A DNA stretch of 64,000 bases from Alphaproteobacteria bacterium (GTDB lineage Bacteria > Pseudomonadota > Alphaproteobacteria > GCA-2731375), in contig JAPYUH010000001.1 in assembly GCA_029936195.1 (NCBI GenBank), forward strand, positions 10,741-74,740, written 5' to 3'. The position numbers and the translations under genes are program-made. Below, piece after piece: positions 38,782 through 64,000 of this stretch (the stretch's first letter is position 1; every line of letters starts with the position of its first letter). The notes below the pieces were generated by a model that was not told where the DNA came from, searched no databases, and saw only the letters and a program-made list of their open reading frames with translations.

Positions 38782-39213
38782 TTAGACCGCTTCGTTGGCG
38801 ACCATGCTGTCCAGGCGGGCAATGCGCCGGTAGAGGCGTTCACTGCGCCGTAGTAGATCACAGAGATAGGGCGGCAAGAGTTCGGGATCCAGCTCGCTCT
38901 CGTCCAGGCAAACCGTCGCCCCGCCAAGACGCCAATTGTCTTCACGTACTTCTTCCCGGCTCAATTCGCCTTGATGCACGGCCCGTTGGACCAACAGCCA
39001 GGCCATCATATTTGTCAGGCGGGAAGTCAGGCGCATGGTCTCGACCGAAAAATGCGCGGCGATCTCAAGGGCTAAATCCTGCGAATCCTCTTCGCCATAG
39101 TCGCGCAAATAGTCACGCGCCTCACGCGTCAGCGCCAAGGCTTCGTCAAAGGTCCGGCCAAAAAAGGCAGCCGGGGCCACAACCGTCGCGGAACTCTTGT
39201 CCTTACTATCCAT
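38782..39213 (-). CDS. DUF1465-family protein (RcdA-like)
   Basis: Alphaproteobacteria-restricted DUF1465 pattern (FDEALALTREARDYL...MMAWLLVQRAV). Start ambiguous: ATG 39213 or the upstream TTG 39249. Confidence 0.55.
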   Translation of the reverse strand: MDSKDKSSATVVAPAAFFGRTFDEALALTREARDYLRDYGEEDSQDLALEIAAHFSVETMRLTSRLTNMMAWLLVQRAVHQGELSREEVREDNWRLGGATVCLDESELDPELLPPYLCDLLRRSERLYRRIARLDSMVANEAV

Positions 39214-39407
39214 CAGGTCAGTATGGCCCGAAAGGATTAACAAATACAAATACGCCGCACCGATCGACGGCCTTGATTTTGTTTTTGGACTTCCTACATC
39301 AGGGTAGTCCGGATGCCCAACGCGGGTCCGGATTTACACGCGGACCTGGCCAATACCGGCGGGTCTCAGGAACCGAAGATATTGCTTCGAAAGGAGGGTA
39401 TCGCGCC

Positions 39408-39836
39408 ATGCGTAGATACGATTTAGCACCATTGTTACGTTCATCCATCGGCTTCGACCGTTTTGACCAGCTGTTTGATGCAGCCAGGCAAAGCGATGGA
39501 GCCGCCAGCCCCTATCCCCCCTATAACATCGAAAAACGGGACGACAACTACCGTATTTCCCTTGCAGTGGCCGGCTTCAGCGAAGCCGATGTCGAGATCA
39601 CCGTGAAGGAAAATTTCCTGGTGGTCGAAGGCAAGACCAAGGCCGATCACGAAGGCCTCACCTACCTGCATCATGGCATCGCGGGACGGGGGTTTGAGCG
39701 GCGCTTTCAGTTGGCCGACAATGTTCAGGTCACCGGCGCCCAACTGGAAAACGGCCTTCTTCACATCGAATTGGAGCGCCACACGCCGGAGCATTTGAAA
39801 CCACGGCGGATCGAAATCCAAAAGATCGCCGCTTAG
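39408..39836 (+). CDS. Hsp20/alpha-crystallin family small heat-shock protein
   Basis: IbpA-like sequence (PYNIEKRDDNYRISLAVAGF...LHIEL). AGGAGGG SD upstream. Confidence 0.85.
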   Translation: MRRYDLAPLLRSSIGFDRFDQLFDAARQSDGAASPYPPYNIEKRDDNYRISLAVAGFSEADVEITVKENFLVVEGKTKADHEGLTYLHHGIAGRGFERRFQLADNVQVTGAQLENGLLHIELERHTPEHLKPRRIEIQKIAA

Positions 39837-39895
39837 ATCAAACAGCAAAAAATTGAAATCAATTTTCGGCTGAGAAATTGAACTAATTCAATGCG

Positions 39896-39939
39896 TTAGC
39901 GCAACCGATCTGCGTTCGAAAGAAAGCAGATTGCGCTAA
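39896..39939. repeat. Nested inverted repeat (TTAGCGCAA...ATCTGC-N12-GCAGAT-TGCGCTAA) downstream of hsp20
   Basis: Seen in sequence. Forms a long imperfect hairpin upstream of the canonical terminator. Confidence 0.45.
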
Positions 39940-39967
39940 GTCGCACACAGCCAACTACTGGCAGCTA

Positions 39968-40004
39968 CCGGGCCCGTCATCTCGCGATGGCGGGCCCTTT
40001 TTGC
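39968..40004 (+). terminator. Rho-independent terminator downstream of hsp20
   Basis: GGGCCCG-N12-CGGGCCC stem followed by TTTTT. Confidence 0.6.
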
Positions 40005-40025
40005 GCCCTTTACATTGTGTTAATA

Positions 40026-40069
40026 ATCTATATATATAAAAATATCTTTATGTAGAGAATTATATAGAT
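40026..40069. promoter_or_regulatory. AT-rich 9-bp perfect inverted repeat (ATCTATATA-N26-TATATAGAT) in the sahR-metF-metH promoter region; candidate operator
   Basis: A perfect palindrome in an ~80% AT stretch immediately upstream of the ArsR-type regulator gene. ArsR/SmtB regulators typically autoregulate through AT-rich palindromes. Confidence 0.4.
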
Positions 40070-40092
40070 CGCGGCGGGCTTGGAAATTGGGC

Positions 40093-41034
40093 ATGGAAAT
40101 TCTACTGCAAGGATTGCGCGCGGCGGCCGAACCGACCCGCCTTCGATTGCTGGCACTATGCGCCCATGGCGAACTGACGGTGACGGAACTGACCCAGATC
40201 CTGGGCCAAAGTCAGCCCCGCGTGTCACGGCATTTGAAGCTGCTGTGCGAGGCGGGGCTGTTGGAACGGCATAGGGAGGGGACCTGGGCCTACTACCGGC
40301 TGGCCGATAGCTCCGATGGCGCCCATTTGGCCCGCACATTGGTGGATCTGGTGCCCAATTGCGACAATAGCCTGGCCCGCGACCTGAACCGTCTGGCCGC
40401 CATCAAACAGACCAGGGCCGACGCGGCGGCGGCCTACTTTCGCGCCAATGCCGAACAATGGGATGAAATCCGCTCTCTCTATGTGCCCGAGAGAGAGGTT
40501 GAGGCGGCACTGCAAAGCGCTATTGGCGAGCGTCCCATTGATGATTTCCTCGATATCGGTACCGGCACGGGGCGTATTCTCGAGGTTTTCGCACCCCGCA
40601 TCAAACGCGGCACTGGGATCGATCTGTCCCACGAGATGCTGCAAGTGGCCCGGGCCAAATTGGAACAGGCCGGCCATCGCCATTGCCAGGTGCGTCACGG
40701 CGATATGTATAATTTGCAACTGCCGGCCGGTGAATTCGACGTGGTGGTGCTGCATCAGGTGCTGCATTACGCCGAGGTGCCCAGCGCGGTTATTGCCGAG
40801 GCGGCGCAGACACTGCGCCCCGGCGGGCGTCTTCTGCTGGTGGATTTCGCGACCCACGACCAGGCTTTCCTGCGCGAGGAACATAAACACCGCTGGCTTG
40901 GCTTCGCGCCGGACCAGATCAACGACTGGTGCGGGGCGGCGGATATGCGGGCCGCGGCGCCTATTGAATTGGCCGGCAGTCAGCTGACCGTGCTGATCTG
41001 GCAGGCCGTACGGGACGGGGAGGGGGTATCGTGA
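40093..41034 (+). CDS. sahR: ArsR-family HTH plus SAM-dependent methyltransferase-like domain regulator (SahR-type methionine-cycle regulator)
   Basis: N-terminal ArsR wHTH (LRLLALCAHGELTVTELTQILGQSQPRVSRHLKLLCEAGLL) fused to a class I MTase fold (DIGTGTGRILEVFAP). Located immediately upstream of metF-metH, as described for SahR. Confidence 0.7.
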   Translation: MEILLQGLRAAAEPTRLRLLALCAHGELTVTELTQILGQSQPRVSRHLKLLCEAGLLERHREGTWAYYRLADSSDGAHLARTLVDLVPNCDNSLARDLNRLAAIKQTRADAAAAYFRANAEQWDEIRSLYVPEREVEAALQSAIGERPIDDFLDIGTGTGRILEVFAPRIKRGTGIDLSHEMLQVARAKLEQAGHRHCQVRHGDMYNLQLPAGEFDVVVLHQVLHYAEVPSAVIAEAAQTLRPGGRLLLVDFATHDQAFLREEHKHRWLGFAPDQINDWCGAADMRAAAPIELAGSQLTVLIWQAVRDGEGVS

Positions 41035-41951
41035 CGACCAATTTGACGGATACACGGCTGATGTCGTCCAATGCCATGGGGCCGCTATCGGTTTCATTCG
41101 AGTTTTTTCCCCCAAAAACCCAGAAAATGGCGGAAAATTTGTGGGCCGCCATGGAGCGTTTGCGCCCCCTCCGGCCAAACTTCGTTTCCGTCACCTATGG
41201 GGCGGCCGGCAGCACCCGCCAACGCACCCATGACACGGTGACCCGTATCCAGAACGAGGGCGGGCTGCCCTGCGCCGCCCATTTGACCTGCGTCGGGGCT
41301 GCCCGGGAAGAGGTCAACGAAGTGGCGCGGAGTTATTGGCAGGCTGGCGTGCGCCACCTGGTGGCCCTGCGCGGCGATCCGCCCGAAGGCGAAGAGAACT
41401 TCCAGAACCATCCCGACGGCTACCACAATGCCGCCGAACTGGTGGCCGGGCTTCGCACGGTCGCGGATTTTGAAATATCCGTCGCCGCCTACCCCGAGAT
41501 GCACCCCAACAGCCCCTCCAGCCAGGCCGATCTGGATAATCTGAAGCGCAAGATCGACGCCGGCGCCAATCGCGCCATCACGCAATTCTTCTTTGATGCC
41601 GATACCTATATGCGTTTCCTCGAACGCGCCAGGGCAGCGGGCATCTGGGTGCCCATCGTGCCGGGCATCCTGCCGGTCAGCAACTTCGTGCGGGCCGCCC
41701 GCATCGCCAAGGCGTGTGGTGCCGCCATGCCGGCCTGGATGGCGCATGTGTTCGAGGGCCTGGAAGAGGATGCGGAAACCCGGCGCATGGTGGCGGTCAC
41801 CGTCGCGGCCGAGCAGTGCCGCAAGCTGCAGTCGGCCGGGGTAACTGATTTTCATTTTTATACTTTAAACCGGGCCGATCTGACCTACGCGATCTGCCAC
41901 ATCATGGGCCTGCGTCCGCAAACGGCGGCGGTGGAAGGAACGCCCGCATGA
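41031..41951 (+). CDS. metF: 5,10-methylenetetrahydrofolate reductase
   Basis: MetF signature (FEFFPPKT...VSVTYGAGGSTR). GTG start overlaps the sahR stop. An alternative ATG lies at 41061. Confidence 0.9.
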   Translation: MTTNLTDTRLMSSNAMGPLSVSFEFFPPKTQKMAENLWAAMERLRPLRPNFVSVTYGAAGSTRQRTHDTVTRIQNEGGLPCAAHLTCVGAAREEVNEVARSYWQAGVRHLVALRGDPPEGEENFQNHPDGYHNAAELVAGLRTVADFEISVAAYPEMHPNSPSSQADLDNLKRKIDAGANRAITQFFFDADTYMRFLERARAAGIWVPIVPGILPVSNFVRAARIAKACGAAMPAWMAHVFEGLEEDAETRRMVAVTVAAEQCRKLQSAGVTDFHFYTLNRADLTYAICHIMGLRPQTAAVEGTPA

Positions 41952-44900
41952 CCAATATTCTGGAGCATCTGCGCCAAGAGGTGCTGTTGTGTGATGGTGC
42001 CATGGGCAGCCGCCTGCAACAGGCTGATCTGGATATCGAGGTCGATTATTGGGGTCAGGAAAACTGCTCCGAAATCCTTAATCTCAGCCGTCCTGATATT
42101 ATCCGCGAGATCCAGCAGGGCTTTGTCGCCGCCGGTTCGGACATTCTGTTGACCAACACTTTTGGCGGTTCGTCCATCACCTTGGCGGAATTCGACCTCC
42201 AGGACCGGACCCACGAAATCAACAAACGGGCCGCCGAACTGGCTCGCGAGGCCTTGGGTGAATTCGGCCGTGACGGTATCCAGCGTTATGTCCTGGGCGA
42301 TATCGGGCCCGGCACCAAGCTGCCCAGCCTGGGCCAGGTCGACTATGACGAATTGGAGGCCGCCCTGGCGGCGCAATCCGCCGGTCTGCTGGCGGGTGGC
42401 GTTGACGGCATCATGATCGAGACGGTGCAGGATATCCTGCAGCTCAAGGCGGCGGTCAACGGCGCCCGCATGGCCATGGCCGAGGCCGGCCGCGAAGTGC
42501 CCATATTGACCCAAGTGACCGTGGAAACCACGGGTACCCTGTTGGTCGGCACCGATATCGCCGGCGCCGCCACGGTCATCCATGCCCTGGGCGTGGAGGC
42601 CATGGGCCTGAATTGCGCCACCGGCCCCCGGGAAATGGCCGAACATGTACGCTGGCTGTCGGAACAATGGCCCGGCATTATCTCGATCCAGCCCAACGCC
42701 GGGCTGCCCGAACTGGTGGACGGCCAGCCCAGCTATCCGCTTTCGCCGGAAGAACTCGCCGATTGGGCCAAACGCTTCGTGGTCGAAGACGGGGTAAATC
42801 TGGTGGGCGGTTGTTGCGGTACGGTAACGACCCACATCAAGGCCTTGAACGACATGCTTGAAGGTTTGAGTGAAGGCCGCCGTCCGAAGCCCAAGTCCCG
42901 GCAGTCCGAATGGGTGCCGGGCATTGCGTCACTTTATGGCCAGATCCCCTATCGCCAGGAAAACGCCTATCTCTCCATCGGCGAGCGCTGCAACGCCAAC
43001 GGCAGCAGAAAATTTCGCGAGTTGCAGGAGGCCGAGGACTGGGACGGCTGTATTGCCATGGGCCGGGAGCAGGCCAAGGAAGGCTCCCACGCCCTGGATA
43101 TTTGCACCGCTTTCGTGGGCCGGAACGAACTGGTGGATATGAGCGCCATGGTCACCCGCATGCGCGGCGCCGTGCATGCGCCCCTGGTCATCGATTCAAC
43201 CGAGTTTCCCGTCTTGGAAGGCGCCCTGAAGCTGTATGGCGGCAAGGCTCTGATTAACTCCATCAATTTCGAGGATGGCGAGGAACCGGCCGCCAAGCGC
43301 CTTGGGCTGGCGCGGAAGTTCGGCTGCGGCGTCATTGCCTTGACCATTGATGAAGAGGGCATGGCCAAAACCGCGGACGAAAAGGTCAAGCTGGCCCACC
43401 GCTTGCACGATTATGCGGTTAATCAGCATGGCATGGCGTCCTCTGATCTGTTGTTTGACCCCCTGACCTTCACAATTTGCACCGGCAATCCCGACGACCG
43501 CCTGCTGGGACTGGAAACCCTGAACGCGATTGAGCGGATCGCCAAGGAACTGCCCGATTGTCAGATTGTTCTGGGCCTTTCAAATATTTCCTTCGGTCTG
43601 AAACCCGCCGCCCGCCATGTTCTGAACTCTGTCTATCTGCAACATGCGCTGGACCGGGGCATGACCGGTGCCATCGTGCACCTGTCGAAAATCCTGCCCC
43701 TGCATTCCATTCCGGAAGAGGAGGTCAAGGCGGCCGAGGATCTGATCTATGACCGCCGGGCGGAAGGCTATGATCCCCTGCATGCATTCATCGCCCTGTT
43801 CGAGGACCGCACGACGGCAAAGGTAGAAAAGGAGCGCCCGGCCGAGGTCGGAGAGCGCCTGAAACTGCGCATCATCGATGGCGACCGTCCCGGTTTGGAG
43901 GAGGACCTGGACGAGGCCATGGAACAGCACGCGCCGTTGGAGATCGTCAACGACATACTGTTGGGCGGCATGAAGGTGGTGGGCGAATTGTTCGGATCGG
44001 GCCAGATGCAGCTGCCGTTCGTGTTGCAATCGGCCGAGACAATGAAGGCCTCCGTGGCTTATCTGGAACCCCATATGGAACGCAGCGCGGACAGCGAAAA
44101 GGGCACCATCGTGTTGGCCACGGTGCGCGGCGATGTTCATGATATCGGCAAGAATCTGGTTGACATTATCCTGACCAACAACGGCTACCGGGTGATTAAT
44201 CTCGGCATCAAGCAGCCCATCGGCGCCATCATGGATGCGGTCAAGGAACATGACGCCGATGCCGTGGGCATGTCGGGACTTTTGGTCAAGTCGACCACGA
44301 TCATGCGGGAAAATTTGGAGGAGATGTCCCGCCAGCAGATCAATCTGCCGGTCATGCTGGGCGGTGCCGCACTGACCCGCGGCTTTGTCGAGGAGGATTG
44401 CGCCAAGGCATACGCCACCGCGTCCGGCCGGGTGGCCTATGCCCGCGACGCCTTCGACGGCCTGGATATCATGGGCAAGGTGGTGGACGGCGTCTTTGAC
44501 GACTATATCGCCGAGCGTGACAAAAAACGCGAGGGCCGGCCCACCAACCAACGGCGTAAACTGGGCCAGCCAACCCTGCTGCCCCGGCCCCTGGATTTGG
44601 AGGAAGTCCGCACCCGGCGCGAGGAACTGCACAAGGGCGTCGCGGTGCCCGAGGCGCCGTTCCTGGGCCATCGCATCATCGAAGAGGTGGGGATCAAGGC
44701 GCTGCTGCCCTATTTGAATGAGCGCATGCTGTATCAATTCCATTGGGGCTATCGCAAGCGGGGCCGGGCCCTGGCGGACTACATGAAATGGGCCCGGGGC
44801 GAGATCAAGCCGATCCTGCTGGATCTGGTGGAACGCTGCGAGGCCGAGAATATTCTGCAACCGCAAGCCGTCTATGGCTATTTCCCCGCCGCCAGTGATG

Positions 44901-45436
44901 GCGACGATCTGGTCCTGTTCGGCCCCGGCGGTGGTGATGAAATTGCCCGCTTTTCGCTGCCCCGCCAGGATCGGGCGGGGGGGCTGTGCATCGCCGATTT
45001 TTTCCGCGAGGCAGACACGGGCGAGCGGGACATCATCGCCTTGCAGGCGGTTACCGTGGGCCAGCACGCCTCGGAAGTGGCGCGGCAGTGGTTCGACGAA
45101 GATCGCTATCAGGACTATCTGTATCTCCACGGCCTGGGCGTGGAAATGGCCGAGGCCATGGCCGAATACGTGCACAAACGGGTGCGCGGCGAACTTGGTT
45201 TCGGTGATCTCGATGCCCGCGACAATGATGCCCTTTTGAACCAGGGTTATCGCGGCTCCCGCTATTCCTTCGGCTATCCCGCCTGCCCGACCATGTCCGA
45301 TCAGCGCAAGATTCTCGATCTGTTGCAGGCCGGCCGCATCGGCCTGGTGATGGGCGACGAGGATCAATTGCACCCGGAACAATCAACCTCGGCCATCGTC
45401 GTGCATCATCCCCAGGCGAAGTATTTCAGCGTTTAA
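41948..45436 (+). CDS. metH: Cobalamin-dependent methionine synthase
   Basis: 1162 aa comprising the Hcy S-methyltransferase domain, pterin-binding domain, B12-binding domain (DVHDIGKN) and AdoMet activation domain. ATGA overlap with metF. Confidence 0.95.
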   Translation: MTNILEHLRQEVLLCDGAMGSRLQQADLDIEVDYWGQENCSEILNLSRPDIIREIQQGFVAAGSDILLTNTFGGSSITLAEFDLQDRTHEINKRAAELAREALGEFGRDGIQRYVLGDIGPGTKLPSLGQVDYDELEAALAAQSAGLLAGGVDGIMIETVQDILQLKAAVNGARMAMAEAGREVPILTQVTVETTGTLLVGTDIAGAATVIHALGVEAMGLNCATGPREMAEHVRWLSEQWPGIISIQPNAGLPELVDGQPSYPLSPEELADWAKRFVVEDGVNLVGGCCGTVTTHIKALNDMLEGLSEGRRPKPKSRQSEWVPGIASLYGQIPYRQENAYLSIGERCNANGSRKFRELQEAEDWDGCIAMGREQAKEGSHALDICTAFVGRNELVDMSAMVTRMRGAVHAPLVIDSTEFPVLEGALKLYGGKALINSINFEDGEEPAAKRLGLARKFGCGVIALTIDEEGMAKTADEKVKLAHRLHDYAVNQHGMASSDLLFDPLTFTICTGNPDDRLLGLETLNAIERIAKELPDCQIVLGLSNISFGLKPAARHVLNSVYLQHALDRGMTGAIVHLSKILPLHSIPEEEVKAAEDLIYDRRAEGYDPLHAFIALFEDRTTAKVEKERPAEVGERLKLRIIDGDRPGLEEDLDEAMEQHAPLEIVNDILLGGMKVVGELFGSGQMQLPFVLQSAETMKASVAYLEPHMERSADSEKGTIVLATVRGDVHDIGKNLVDIILTNNGYRVINLGIKQPIGAIMDAVKEHDADAVGMSGLLVKSTTIMRENLEEMSRQQINLPVMLGGAALTRGFVEEDCAKAYATASGRVAYARDAFDGLDIMGKVVDGVFDDYIAERDKKREGRPTNQRRKLGQPTLLPRPLDLEEVRTRREELHKGVAVPEAPFLGHRIIEEVGIKALLPYLNERMLYQFHWGYRKRGRALADYMKWARGEIKPILLDLVERCEAENILQPQAVYGYFPAASDGDDLVLFGPGGGDEIARFSLPRQDRAGGLCIADFFREADTGERDIIALQAVTVGQHASEVARQWFDEDRYQDYLYLHGLGVEMAEAMAEYVHKRVRGELGFGDLDARDNDALLNQGYRGSRYSFGYPACPTMSDQRKILDLLQAGRIGLVMGDEDQLHPEQSTSAIVVHHPQAKYFSV

Positions 45437-46629
45437 TTGGTTTGCCCGGCCATGCGGGCCACCGGTTGGTCGCTGATGGGCCAGTGCAGGGCGGCGGCCG
45501 CCAGCCCCAGGGCGACGGAGATACCCCACATCAGATCGTAGGATCCGGTCAGGTCATAGATATATCCACCCAGCCAGGCGCCGGTGAAACCGCCGATCTG
45601 GTGGCTCATGAAAACCACGCCATAGAGCATGGAAAAATGCCGCGGCCCAAATACCTGGGCGACAATGCCGGAGGTCAAGGGCACGGTGGCGAGCCAGATA
45701 ATACCCAATGCCGCGCCGAAAATGATCCCGGTCACGTCATTGATGGGTATTATCAAAATCAACACCATCACCACGGCGCGGAGGCCGTAGATCAGGGTCA
45801 GAACGTTCTTTTTCCGAAACCGGTCGCCCAGAACCCCGAATAGATAGGCGCCGATGACATTGAACAAGCCGATAACGCCAAGGGCATAAGCCGCCGCCGT
45901 CAGGGACACGCCATTGTCGGCTAAATAGGCCGGGAAATGGGTGGCGATGAAGGTGACGTGGAAGCCGCAAACAAAAAACCCCACCGTCAGCAGCAAATAT
46001 CCCGAATGCCCCCTGGCCTCCTCTATGGCCTGGCGCAGGGACTGCTTGGGGCCAGCGTCCACCACCATTGGGCCGGATCGCAATCCGATAGATAACAAGG
46101 GGATTACAACCATGATGGCGGCCATCATGGCCAGGGTCTCGCGCCAGCCGAAGACATCCAGCATGCCTTGCAAGCCGGGGACCAGAAAAAACATGCCCAG
46201 GGAGCCGGCGGCAATCACCGTGCCGAACACCATGCCCCGTCGTTCGTTGGGAACAATTTTTCCCACGGCGCCTAGAACGATCACTTGCGAGGCGCCGCTG
46301 AGCCCGAGGCCGATCAGCAGGCCGAGGGATATCTGCAGATCGAGGGCATTGGCACTGACGCTCAACAGCCATAGGCCCAGGGCGTAGAGCAGGGTGCCTC
46401 CGATGATCAACTTCACTGCCCCGTAGCGGTCGGCAAGCATGCCCGCGACGGGTTGCGTCAGGCCGGACAGAAGGGTCTGAAAGGCAATGACGAAACCGAA
46501 CATCTGCCGGCTGATATCCAGATCCAGGGCGATGGGGCGCAGGAAGATGCCGAAGGTTTGGCGCAAACCGTTGGTGGCCAATACGATCAGCACGCCGCAC
46601 AGCAGCATGATCCAAATTTGTCTTGTCAT
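45433..46629 (-). CDS. MFS transporter
   Basis: 12-TM MFS topology with the conserved G(x)3D(R/K)xGR-like loop (GMLADRYG). Confidence 0.8.
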   Translation of the reverse strand: MTRQIWIMLLCGVLIVLATNGLRQTFGIFLRPIALDLDISRQMFGFVIAFQTLLSGLTQPVAGMLADRYGAVKLIIGGTLLYALGLWLLSVSANALDLQISLGLLIGLGLSGASQVIVLGAVGKIVPNERRGMVFGTVIAAGSLGMFFLVPGLQGMLDVFGWRETLAMMAAIMVVIPLLSIGLRSGPMVVDAGPKQSLRQAIEEARGHSGYLLLTVGFFVCGFHVTFIATHFPAYLADNGVSLTAAAYALGVIGLFNVIGAYLFGVLGDRFRKKNVLTLIYGLRAVVMVLILIIPINDVTGIIFGAALGIIWLATVPLTSGIVAQVFGPRHFSMLYGVVFMSHQIGGFTGAWLGGYIYDLTGSYDLMWGISVALGLAAAALHWPISDQPVARMAGQTN

Positions 46630-62639: not shown

Positions 62640-62796
62640 ACACGAAATTCCATATTTAATGAATAGAATTATTTATTAATATTATACGATAGTAATATAA
62701 AAATTTATACTATCAATTTTAAGCTAGTGATTTATTATGTCCATTCGGCATACTCTATTTGGTTTAGTATACTGGCATCATTAGGAGTATTTTCCT
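62640..62796. promoter_or_regulatory. Strongly AT-rich (~25% GC) island upstream of the GAF-PAS sensor gene
   Basis: About 150 bp of AT-rich sequence in a ~64% GC background. AGGAG SD lies 7 nt before the TTG at 62797. Confidence 0.5.
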
Positions 62797-64000
62797 TGTC
62801 GTCGGATTGTTCACAGCGTGCGCCTGGCGCAAGTCAGACCCCCGTCGGGAAAATGTTTAACTCGACCGACGCTACGGGGACCGGTGCAAGCCTGCTGTCG
62901 CGGCAACTGGAACTGGTGGGCAAACTGGCGGCCAGCACGGTCCTCATAGATGAGGGTTTGCAACCGGCCCTGCGGGAAATCGCGGAAATTGCCGGGGAAG
63001 TGCTGGACGTGGACCGCGTGGCGATTTGGAGAATTGGGCGGGACGAGACGGAGATCACTTGCGGCGATGCCTTCCAACGAAGCGACGGCAGTCATGTTCA
63101 TGGCCAAACGACAAAAATTTCGGAGCATCGGGAACATATCGAATTTTTGCGGCAGCAGCATGTGGTCGCGGTGGCCGATCTGAACGAAGTGAACGCGTTA
63201 CCGCGGTCAGGTTCTGATTTATTGAAATCACTGGGTGATACCGCACTGCTTGAGGCGACTGTTTGGCGCGAAGGCCGATTTATCGGGACGATGGCCTTCG
63301 CGATGCTTGGTACGCCACGTATCTGGAGTGAGGAAGAACAGGCCTTGGCTGGCGTGTTTGTTGAATTCTTTTCCCGTATTTTTGCAACCCACGAGCGGCG
63401 GGAGCTGGAAGCCGTGCTCCGGGATTACGCCGAATCCGCATCGGATTGGTTTTGGGAGATGGATGCTGATGGCCGTTTTACCTATATCTCGGACCGGATT
63501 TTCGGAGCGACCGGTGATCGTCCGACATCGATTTATGGGAATACTTTTGAGCAGATGGGCCATGAAGTATCTTCCGAGGACCAGCGCAGTCTCAACAGCG
63601 CCCTTGCCAACCGGCAACCATTTCAAAATCTCGTTAGTTGGCGGCAACTGCGAGACGGCAGGGTCACATGGACACGATCAGGTGGCGTGCCGATATTTGA
63701 TGATGAAGGACAATTCGCCGGATATCGAGGCTCGAGTGCTGATATCACCGACACCAAGATGCTTGAACTGGAGAAAACTGAACAAGCAGAATTATTAGAG
63801 GCAATTTTGGAAAATATGCCAACAATTGTCTCGTTTTGTGACCGCGAGTTGCAGTTAGTATTTGTGAACAATGCACACGCAAAATATCATGGACTTGAAA
63901 AATCTGAAATAGTTGGCAAGACTTTGTTAGAAGTTTTGGGGCCGTCGACGGGGGCAAAATCTGAAGATTTTATCCATGAAGTCATCCGGACCGGCGAGCC
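62797..64000 (+). CDS. GAF-PAS signal-transduction protein; the ORF runs off the window end
   Basis: Hand translation gives an open frame to position 64000, with a GAF-like segment followed by PAS-like segments (WFWEMDADGRFTYISDRI...). Start is TTG 62797 with SD, or ATG 62854. The last ~400 nt have strikingly low GC3. Confidence 0.7.

Follow-up and report, generated by a model that had tools for sequence, protein, structure and literature searches.

The gene at positions 40093-41034 of a 64,000-nucleotide stretch of DNA from an alphaproteobacterium (contig JAPYUH010000001.1; the whole stretch is called the window below) is, with a probability that we put at roughly 85%, an orthologue of SahR and heads a sahR-metF-metH operon that is autoregulated and translationally coupled. 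SahR is reportedly an ArsR-family repressor of the S-adenosylmethionine (SAM) cycle that responds to S-adenosylhomocysteine (SAH), a description credited to Novichkov et al. in 2014 (Environ Microbiol 16:1). We base our identification on the architecture and homology of the protein, the structure of the operon, a conserved palindromic box 5' of the regulator gene, and the genes before which related bacteria carry the same box. The arrangement is typical of the SahR family and leaves the current understanding of methionine-cycle regulation unchanged. The features that carry the argument are as follows.

40034-40053, no strand assigned: SahR box (predicted operator), ATATAAAAATATCTTTATGT, a 20-bp palindrome that agrees with the consensus ATATAAAGATATCTTTATAT at 18/20 positions.
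40093-41034, forward strand: sahR, a 313-amino-acid regulator with an ArsR-type winged helix and a class I SAM-methyltransferase fold, recognized by Pfam, NCBIfam, AlphaFold and homology.
41031-41951, forward strand: metF, methylenetetrahydrofolate reductase of 306 amino acids (PF02219, 334 bits; TIGR00676, 352 bits), in agreement with public gene calls.
41948-45436, forward strand: metH, cobalamin-dependent methionine synthase, complete in its five Pfam domains (TIGR02082, 1224 bits).

A preliminary description of this DNA, made from its letters alone, had proposed a SahR-type regulator that heads a metF-metH operon and is translationally coupled to it, and these proposals are borne out. Both downstream genes have the profile matches given above, the sahR stop codon overlaps the metF GTG start codon by 4 nucleotides (GTGA, 41031-34), and the metF stop codon overlaps the metH ATG start codon to the same extent (ATGA, 41948-51). 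Each overlap is preceded by a Shine-Dalgarno-like sequence (GGAGG/GGAAGG), with GGAGGGGG located 5 nucleotides 5' of the metF GTG. The operon ends with metH, and the next gene is a convergent major facilitator superfamily transporter (45433-46629). With the regulator protein as query, species-representative genomes yielded 80 related loci, 78 of them with intact upstream sequence, and the order sahR-metF is found in 76 of the 80, the majority of which also have metH. Nineteen of the 80 loci are close relatives (78-95% identity) and belong to marine metagenome-assembled genomes (MAGs) labelled Rhodospirillaceae, Alphaproteobacteria or Proteobacteria.

The sahR open reading frame was listed from a TTG codon at 40087, and the ATG two codons later, at 40093, is the start used in close relatives and in public gene calls. 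From this ATG the product has 313 amino acids, with the N-terminus M-E-I/L-L. Pfam places an HTH_5 (ArsR, PF01022) domain at amino acids 14-58 and a Methyltransf_11 (PF08241) domain at 153-248, and the NCBIfam model HTH_metalloreg (NF033788, "metalloregulator ArsR/SmtB" subfamily) matches at 84 bits. The AlphaFold model (predicted local distance difference test, pLDDT, 93.8; predicted template modelling score, pTM, 0.88) consists of a winged helix, a linker helix of ~35 residues, and a seven-stranded Rossmann methyltransferase domain, and thus agrees with the two profile databases on the ArsR helix-turn-helix plus class I methyltransferase architecture that had been expected. The nearest solved folds detected by Foldseek are the class I methyltransferases YcgJ, RebM and Hvo_0019, and the enzymes Rv2258c and DnrK, which combine a winged helix-turn-helix with a methyltransferase domain; sequence matches to the winged helix in the PDB are 3f6v, 6j0e and 1r22. 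Sequence search and Foldseek found no full-length SahR-type structure in the PDB, only separate-domain or generic winged helix-turn-helix plus methyltransferase neighbours.

Family alignments of 47 and 79 homologues contain an invariant recognition helix region, S40-Q-P-R-x-S-R-H-L (SQPRVSRHL in this protein), and invariant SAM/SAH-binding signatures: D154-x-G156-T-G158-x-G160 (motif I), G175-x-D177 (the acidic residue after strand 2), and R201-H-G-D204. A histidine cluster (H221, H225, H255, H264 and H266) is also conserved. Because the SAM/SAH signatures are conserved, the model is confident, and the fold neighbours are methyltransferases, the modelled ligand pocket looks intact. The protein is 62-66% identical to proteins of Azospirillaceae and Arenibaculum, and shares 51-65% identity with alphaproteobacterial homologues whose gene context is of the sahR type. 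It groups with these metF/metH-linked homologues, and not with ordinary ArsR/methyltransferase fusions.

The predicted operator resides in a markedly AT-rich segment. The 80 bp upstream of the gene (40010-40089) are 72.5% AT and the core at 40016-40070 is 84% AT, in a window of 61% GC; the AT-richness noted in the preliminary description therefore stands, and its figure of ~80% for the 80 bp does not. That description had also located operator and promoter in this segment, which agrees with the presence of the conserved box there, and had singled out one inverted repeat within it, in place of which we propose the box at 40034-40053. In the distant loci (53-66% identity), the perfect 20-bp palindrome ATATAAAGATATCTTTATAT is the recurrent element 5' of the regulator gene. 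Matches to the box of at least 14/20 positions are present in 78/78 loci with intact upstream sequence, and of at least 16/20 in 68, always 26-163 nucleotides 5' of the regulator start codon. The box is the sole match in the window at up to 3 mismatches (0 expected; none in 100 shuffles), and scores 36.9 with a symmetrized position weight matrix (PWM) that was built from 39 distinct box sites and has a maximum of 40.2. Across 870 kb of related loci, only 7 other sites score above 20, each of them before a corrinoid-protein gene.

The literature gives SahR a 20-bp palindromic motif, of slightly different form in alpha- and deltaproteobacteria, and a core regulon of sahR, ahcY, metH, metF and metK (Leyn et al. 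2014, PMC4239095). Conservation scores reported for Rhodospirillales are 1.14 for sahR, 0.86 for each of ahcY, metF and metH, and 0 for metK (PMC4239095 Table S2), and SahR orthologues of this order include Rru_A1529, amb0432, AZL_009180 and RC1_2051 (PMC4239095). We scanned metagenome contigs with the degenerate box AYATAARNATATNYTTATRT alone, using no protein information, and at least 120 contigs matched. Among the matches listed, contigs of at least 55% GC contain 61 sites, 54 of which adjoin a SahR homologue, ahcY, metK or metH: 40 are directly 5' of a SahR homologue (one of these is shared with a divergent metH), 6 are at metK, 5 are at ahcY, and 3 are upstream of metH-type genes only, while the remaining 7 adjoin none of these. 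Contigs below 55% GC contain 62 sites among the matches listed, and 58 have no relevant neighbour; these neighbourless sites are chance matches in AT-rich DNA.

Cultured relatives show the same association. Sinorhizobium meliloti Ak57 encodes a homologue, 51% identical over its full length, directly before metF (LZK74_28045-28040). Gene context and box, rather than a locus tag, lead us to equate its gene with the published sahR. Its box, ACATAAACATATCTTTATGT (PWM score 35.3), ends 17 nucleotides 5' of the annotated sahR start. The S. meliloti locus differs from that in the window in that metH is not adjacent and the protein has 340 amino acids, with short extensions. A report on the related Ensifer aridi places the SahR motif predicted for rhizobia in the sahR promoter (PMC8877191), and sahR autoregulation is supported because expression of the gene is highest in a sahR deletion mutant (PMC8877191). 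In Azospirillum brasilense, ahcY is preceded by the box ACATAAAGATATCTTTATGC (PWM score 30.8), and no box was found at the single Azospirillum metK examined, which is plasmid-borne (Azospirillum sp. TSH100); this pattern of boxed ahcY and unboxed metK agrees with the published Rhodospirillales regulog (PMC4239095). From the metagenome scan, S. meliloti and Azospirillum together, we therefore take the box to be the alphaproteobacterial SahR operator and the protein of the window to be a SahR orthologue. The motif is thus found in relatives before methionine-cycle genes other than those of the operon itself.

The system of the window shares with published SahR its domain architecture, the linkage to metF-metH, and a 20-bp palindromic box 5' of its own gene, and in relatives the box also precedes ahcY, metH and, outside Rhodospirillales, metK. 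It differs in its host, an uncultured marine Rhodospirillaceae-like lineage outside the published genome set, and nothing differs in kind. In this deep-ocean alphaproteobacterial lineage, the name sahR can replace the generic public label "metalloregulator ArsR/SmtB", with the operator placed at 40034-40053, and SAH-responsive control can be ascribed to metF-metH. Built from 78 genome loci and verified with the blind metagenome scan, the consensus ATATAAAGATATCTTTATAT also gives in text form a motif that the literature consulted shows as images, and is usable to find SahR targets in MAGs.

Upstream of sahR is an hsp20/ibpA-like gene (39381-39836) that ends in a strong terminator, which leaves the regulator a separate promoter region of ~95 bp. 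The elements that bear on this promoter, with the terminator that delimits the sahR transcription unit on its 5' side, are listed below.

39970-39997, forward strand: intrinsic terminator of the hsp20/ibpA-like gene, with a 12-bp stem (9 G-C pairs), a 4-nucleotide loop and a T-run; the hairpin is kept in close relatives.
40009-40014, forward strand: -35-like hexamer TTTACA of the putative sahR promoter, conserved as TTTAC(A/T) among close relatives, with diverged sequence further upstream.
40020-40033, forward strand: clade-specific block TTAATAATCTATAT, located 3' of the -35-like hexamer and 5' of the box, with the same sequence in 14 loci of the close clade.

Among the close relatives, conservation is confined to a bounded block, cTTTAC(A/T)-nnnnn-TTAATAATCTATAT-ATATAAAAATATCTTTATGT, with divergence on both sides; past the terminal TTTATGT, the sequences differ in every close genome. 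TTTAC(A/T) occurs 17-19 nucleotides 5' of the box in 18 of the 19 close loci (19 nucleotides in 17 of them). The distant loci have another geometry: a -35-like hexamer (TTGACA/TTTACA, up to 2 mismatches) ends 1-8 nucleotides before the box, most often 3, in 28/59 loci. In the distant loci the box would thus fill the spacer and the -10 region, whereas in the close clade a -10-like ATATAT/TATATA appears to lie at 40032-38, with the probable transcription start inside the box. With promoter positions placed in this way from sequence, a bound dimer could occlude RNA polymerase in either geometry.

We propose that a SahR dimer binds the palindrome ATATAAAAATATCTTTATGT at 40034-40053. The putative promoter has TTTACA (40009-14) as its -35-like hexamer, and the box, which begins at its -10-like element or overlaps it, also covers the probable transcription start, so bound SahR would block RNA polymerase. 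When methylation reactions cause SAH to accumulate, SAH would occupy the methyltransferase-fold domain and SahR would leave the DNA. On release, the cell would make MetF, which supplies 5-methyltetrahydrofolate, MetH, which converts homocysteine to methionine, and more SahR; in Rhodospirillales-type genomes, ahcY, at another genomic site, would be derepressed likewise. Repression, SAH as the ligand and the dimeric state are all proposed by analogy with the published SahR family. ArsR/SmtB metalloregulators such as ArsR, SmtB, CadC and BigR share the N-terminal winged helix-turn-helix, and SahR is likely to resemble them in its mode of action, as a dimeric repressor released by its ligand. It differs from them in that sensing would occur through a methyltransferase-fold domain of ~190 amino acids.

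Several observations weigh against this interpretation. The putative promoter has weak hexamers, with no final T in the -10-like element, and a simple promoter scanner called no forward-strand promoter in the sahR upstream region. Neither ahcY nor metK was detected by diagnostic peptide patterns in the window or in the 80 genome loci, and their absence from the window and from the close-clade flanks means that the regulon claim draws on the genomes of relatives. The effector and the sign of regulation come from Desulfovibrio biochemistry as cited by other papers. The tie to the published motif is drawn from the length and symmetry of the box, from the content of its regulon and from the sites in S. 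meliloti and Azospirillum, and a full-text literature search with the box sequence returned unrelated papers only.

The clade-specific block departs from published SahR systems in that a conserved 14-bp filler with an extra half-site-like sequence separates the promoter hexamer from the box, so that the hexamer is 17-19 (usually 19) nucleotides from the box in this clade, compared with ~3 in other alphaproteobacteria. The block is found only before sahR, and not elsewhere in the window or in ~1.5 Mb of locus sequence. Species that share only 80-95% identity in SahR have kept it unaltered. Together with positions 40034-35 it contains an isolated half-site-like sequence, ATCTATATAT (40026-35), and it runs into the -10-like ATATAT/TATATA. 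Its role may be that of spacer and -10 element, or of an extra half-site. A bolder reading, which we consider doubtful, is that the promoter was rebuilt in the marine clade and that the block is functional in itself, as the site of a third SahR subunit, a second SahR dimer or a second regulator of metF-metH. The box, having occupied the -35/-10 spacer, would then have shifted to the -10/+1 region, with a near-perfect half-site abutting it, and an extra SahR subunit or dimer at the block could give cooperative, sharper SAH-dependent switching. The PWM detected no second full SahR site in the left arm of the repeat discussed below or in the block, only an echo shifted by 2 nucleotides (40032, score 15.8).

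Among explanations that would change the identity of the system itself, the best to survive is a SamR-like protein in which SAM acts as a corepressor instead of SAH as an inducer, with the same DNA-binding logic and the opposite effector logic. SamR of Xanthomonadales resembles the protein of the window in combining an ArsR helix-turn-helix with a methyltransferase-like domain, in its position beside methionine synthase genes and in its AT-rich palindromic operator (PMC4239095). SAM and SAH share the adenosyl moiety that the ligand domain would bind, sequence alone does not discriminate between them, and SAM is itself only a proposed effector of SamR (PMC4239095). However, descriptions of SamR are confined to Xanthomonadales, its identity to SahR is ~30%, its motif spans 24 bp, and its regulon serves biosynthesis from homoserine and lacks ahcY and all SAM-cycle genes except metK (PMC4239095). 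The box found here has 20 bp and stands before ahcY in relatives, and the protein shares 51-65% identity with homologues in sahR-type context, so we regard this alternative as unlikely and retain a SahR orthologue as the preferred identification.

The inverted repeat that the preliminary description flagged as the SahR operator is indeed present and perfect, with 9-bp arms ATCTATATA (40026-40034) and TATATAGAT (40061-40069) separated by 26 nucleotides. The box lies between the two arms and has one base (40034) in common with the left arm.

40061-40069, forward strand: right arm TATATAGAT, found in the window only; the overlapping 40060-69, TTATATAGAT, matches the left half-site of the box at 8/10 positions.

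Were ATCTATATA (N26) TATATAGAT the operator, SahR would bind two distant half-sites, perhaps by looping or as two dimers. In addition to being perfect, the repeat has arms that resemble half-sites of the PWM consensus: ATCTATATAT at 40026-35 matches the right half-site ATCTTTATAT at 9/10 positions, and the left half-site of which TTATATAGAT is a near copy reads ATATAAAGAT. Moreover, the left arm (40026-34) falls in the block conserved among close relatives. However, the right arm is present in 0/19 close relatives, and even a 95%-identical one (L001) has TATGTAAAT there. A perfect inverted repeat of at least 9 bp arises in 3.7% of 2000 dinucleotide-preserving shuffles of the 77-bp AT-rich segment (P ~0.04 from composition alone), and a 9-bp repeat is little informative here because TATATA is self-complementary. 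The arms probably pair with each other because each resembles one half-site of the box, and the right arm is probably fortuitous. A separation of 35 bp from centre to centre is also unfit for one ArsR-type dimer, the published motif is a 20-bp palindrome (PMC4239095), and no second full site is found by the PWM. We therefore do not accept the repeat as the SahR operator and consider a role of this kind very unlikely; it appears to be a decoy, in a region where the operator site is revealed only through conservation.

An ordinary ArsR/ArsM-type metalloid-responsive fusion, or an active methyltransferase with a helix-turn-helix, unrelated to methionine control, is scarcely credible. Metal sites of ArsR proteins are of a Cys-containing ELCVCDL type in helix alpha-3, or of an Asp/His/Glu type in helix alpha-5. 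The best NCBIfam name for the protein is that of a metalloregulator, and there are weak matches to arsenite methyltransferases, but these reach 46 bits against cut-offs of 263-575, and all methyltransferase equivalog models of NCBIfam score far under their cut-offs. The alpha-3 stretch reads ELTVTEL in place of ELCVCDL, with T29 and V30 invariant across homologues, the DxHx10HxxE motif of the alpha-5 site is not present after the wing, no ars genes were found near sahR in the window, and synteny and the box link the gene to metF, metH and ahcY. SahR may nevertheless possess catalytic activity besides sensing.

Control by a leader riboswitch for SAM, SAH or cobalamin, in place of a protein operator, would fit the use of SAH and SAM riboswitches at metH and metF in other Proteobacteria, where SAH riboswitches of beta- and gammaproteobacteria control ahcY, metF and metH in response to SAH (PMC4239095), and a leader of ~45-50 nucleotides extends between the putative transcription start and the ATG. 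Such RNA-based control nevertheless has next to no likelihood here, since no Rfam model matches at gathering thresholds anywhere in the window, the region 39800-40150 gives two chance-level matches only (E ~0.4), no structured leader with covariation is visible, and the sequence 3' of the box is unconserved even among close relatives.

The corrinoid-protein sites noted above belong to seven MAGs labelled Chloroflexota or Dehalococcoidia, which carry a sahR-metF pair ~60% identical to that of the window. In all seven, a second SahR-type box is located just 3' of a TTGACA.

L035 2909-2928, with counterparts at L025 2694, L037 2971, L038 292, L039 2980, L056 2962 and L070 2973: second box ATATAACGATATGTTTATGT, PWM score above 20.

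The genes that follow this box encode a corrinoid (B12-binding) protein and a RACo-type reductive activator, and the pair adjoins genes for a URO-D-like methyltransferase and a stand-alone homocysteine-S-methyltransferase-like (S-methyl_trans-like) protein. The assembly looks like a split corrinoid methyltransferase or methionine synthase system under SahR control, an extension of the regulon to corrinoid genes that is not listed in the published SahR regulon tables (PMC4239095). The regulator in these MAGs looks like the product of horizontal transfer between marine alphaproteobacteria and SAR202-type Chloroflexota, or of mis-binning.

A 30%-identical homologue that combines ArsR and methyltransferase domains lies directly 5' of ahcY in Leptospira interrogans (NZ_CP043881.1, 134542-136780; NZ_CP020413.2, 38578-40816), which suggests that SahR-like control of ahcY may extend outside Proteobacteria. 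The S. meliloti record that holds sahR-metF (CP090106.1; PLSDB, 3.72 Mb) is labelled "plasmid pSymB", yet it is chromosome-sized and contains chromosomal housekeeping genes (ettA and sahR-metF); it is probably mislabelled and apparently a chromosome.

Elsewhere in the window, a second very AT-rich intergenic stretch occurs at 62640-62800 (TTATTTATTAATATTATACGATAGTAATATAAAAATTTATACTATCAATTTTAAG) and contains internal TATAC...GTATA-like repeats. A PWM match within it (62663, score 15.6) was rejected as a SahR box on account of its weak score, and the stretch may serve another regulator as operator or promoter. Downstream of the hsp20 stop codon, and before the terminator, is a hairpin (39896-39939) with nested perfect stems, TTAGCGCAA / TTGCGCTAA and ATCTGC / GCAGAT, that is unique in the window (0 expected); it has no Rfam match and is not found at the same position in close relatives. 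Two genes upstream of sahR, on the reverse strand, 38782-39249 encodes a homologue of DUF1465 / RcdA-like protease adaptors (NF051867, 94 bits, under the cut-off of 170), which fits the alphaproteobacterial origin of the window.

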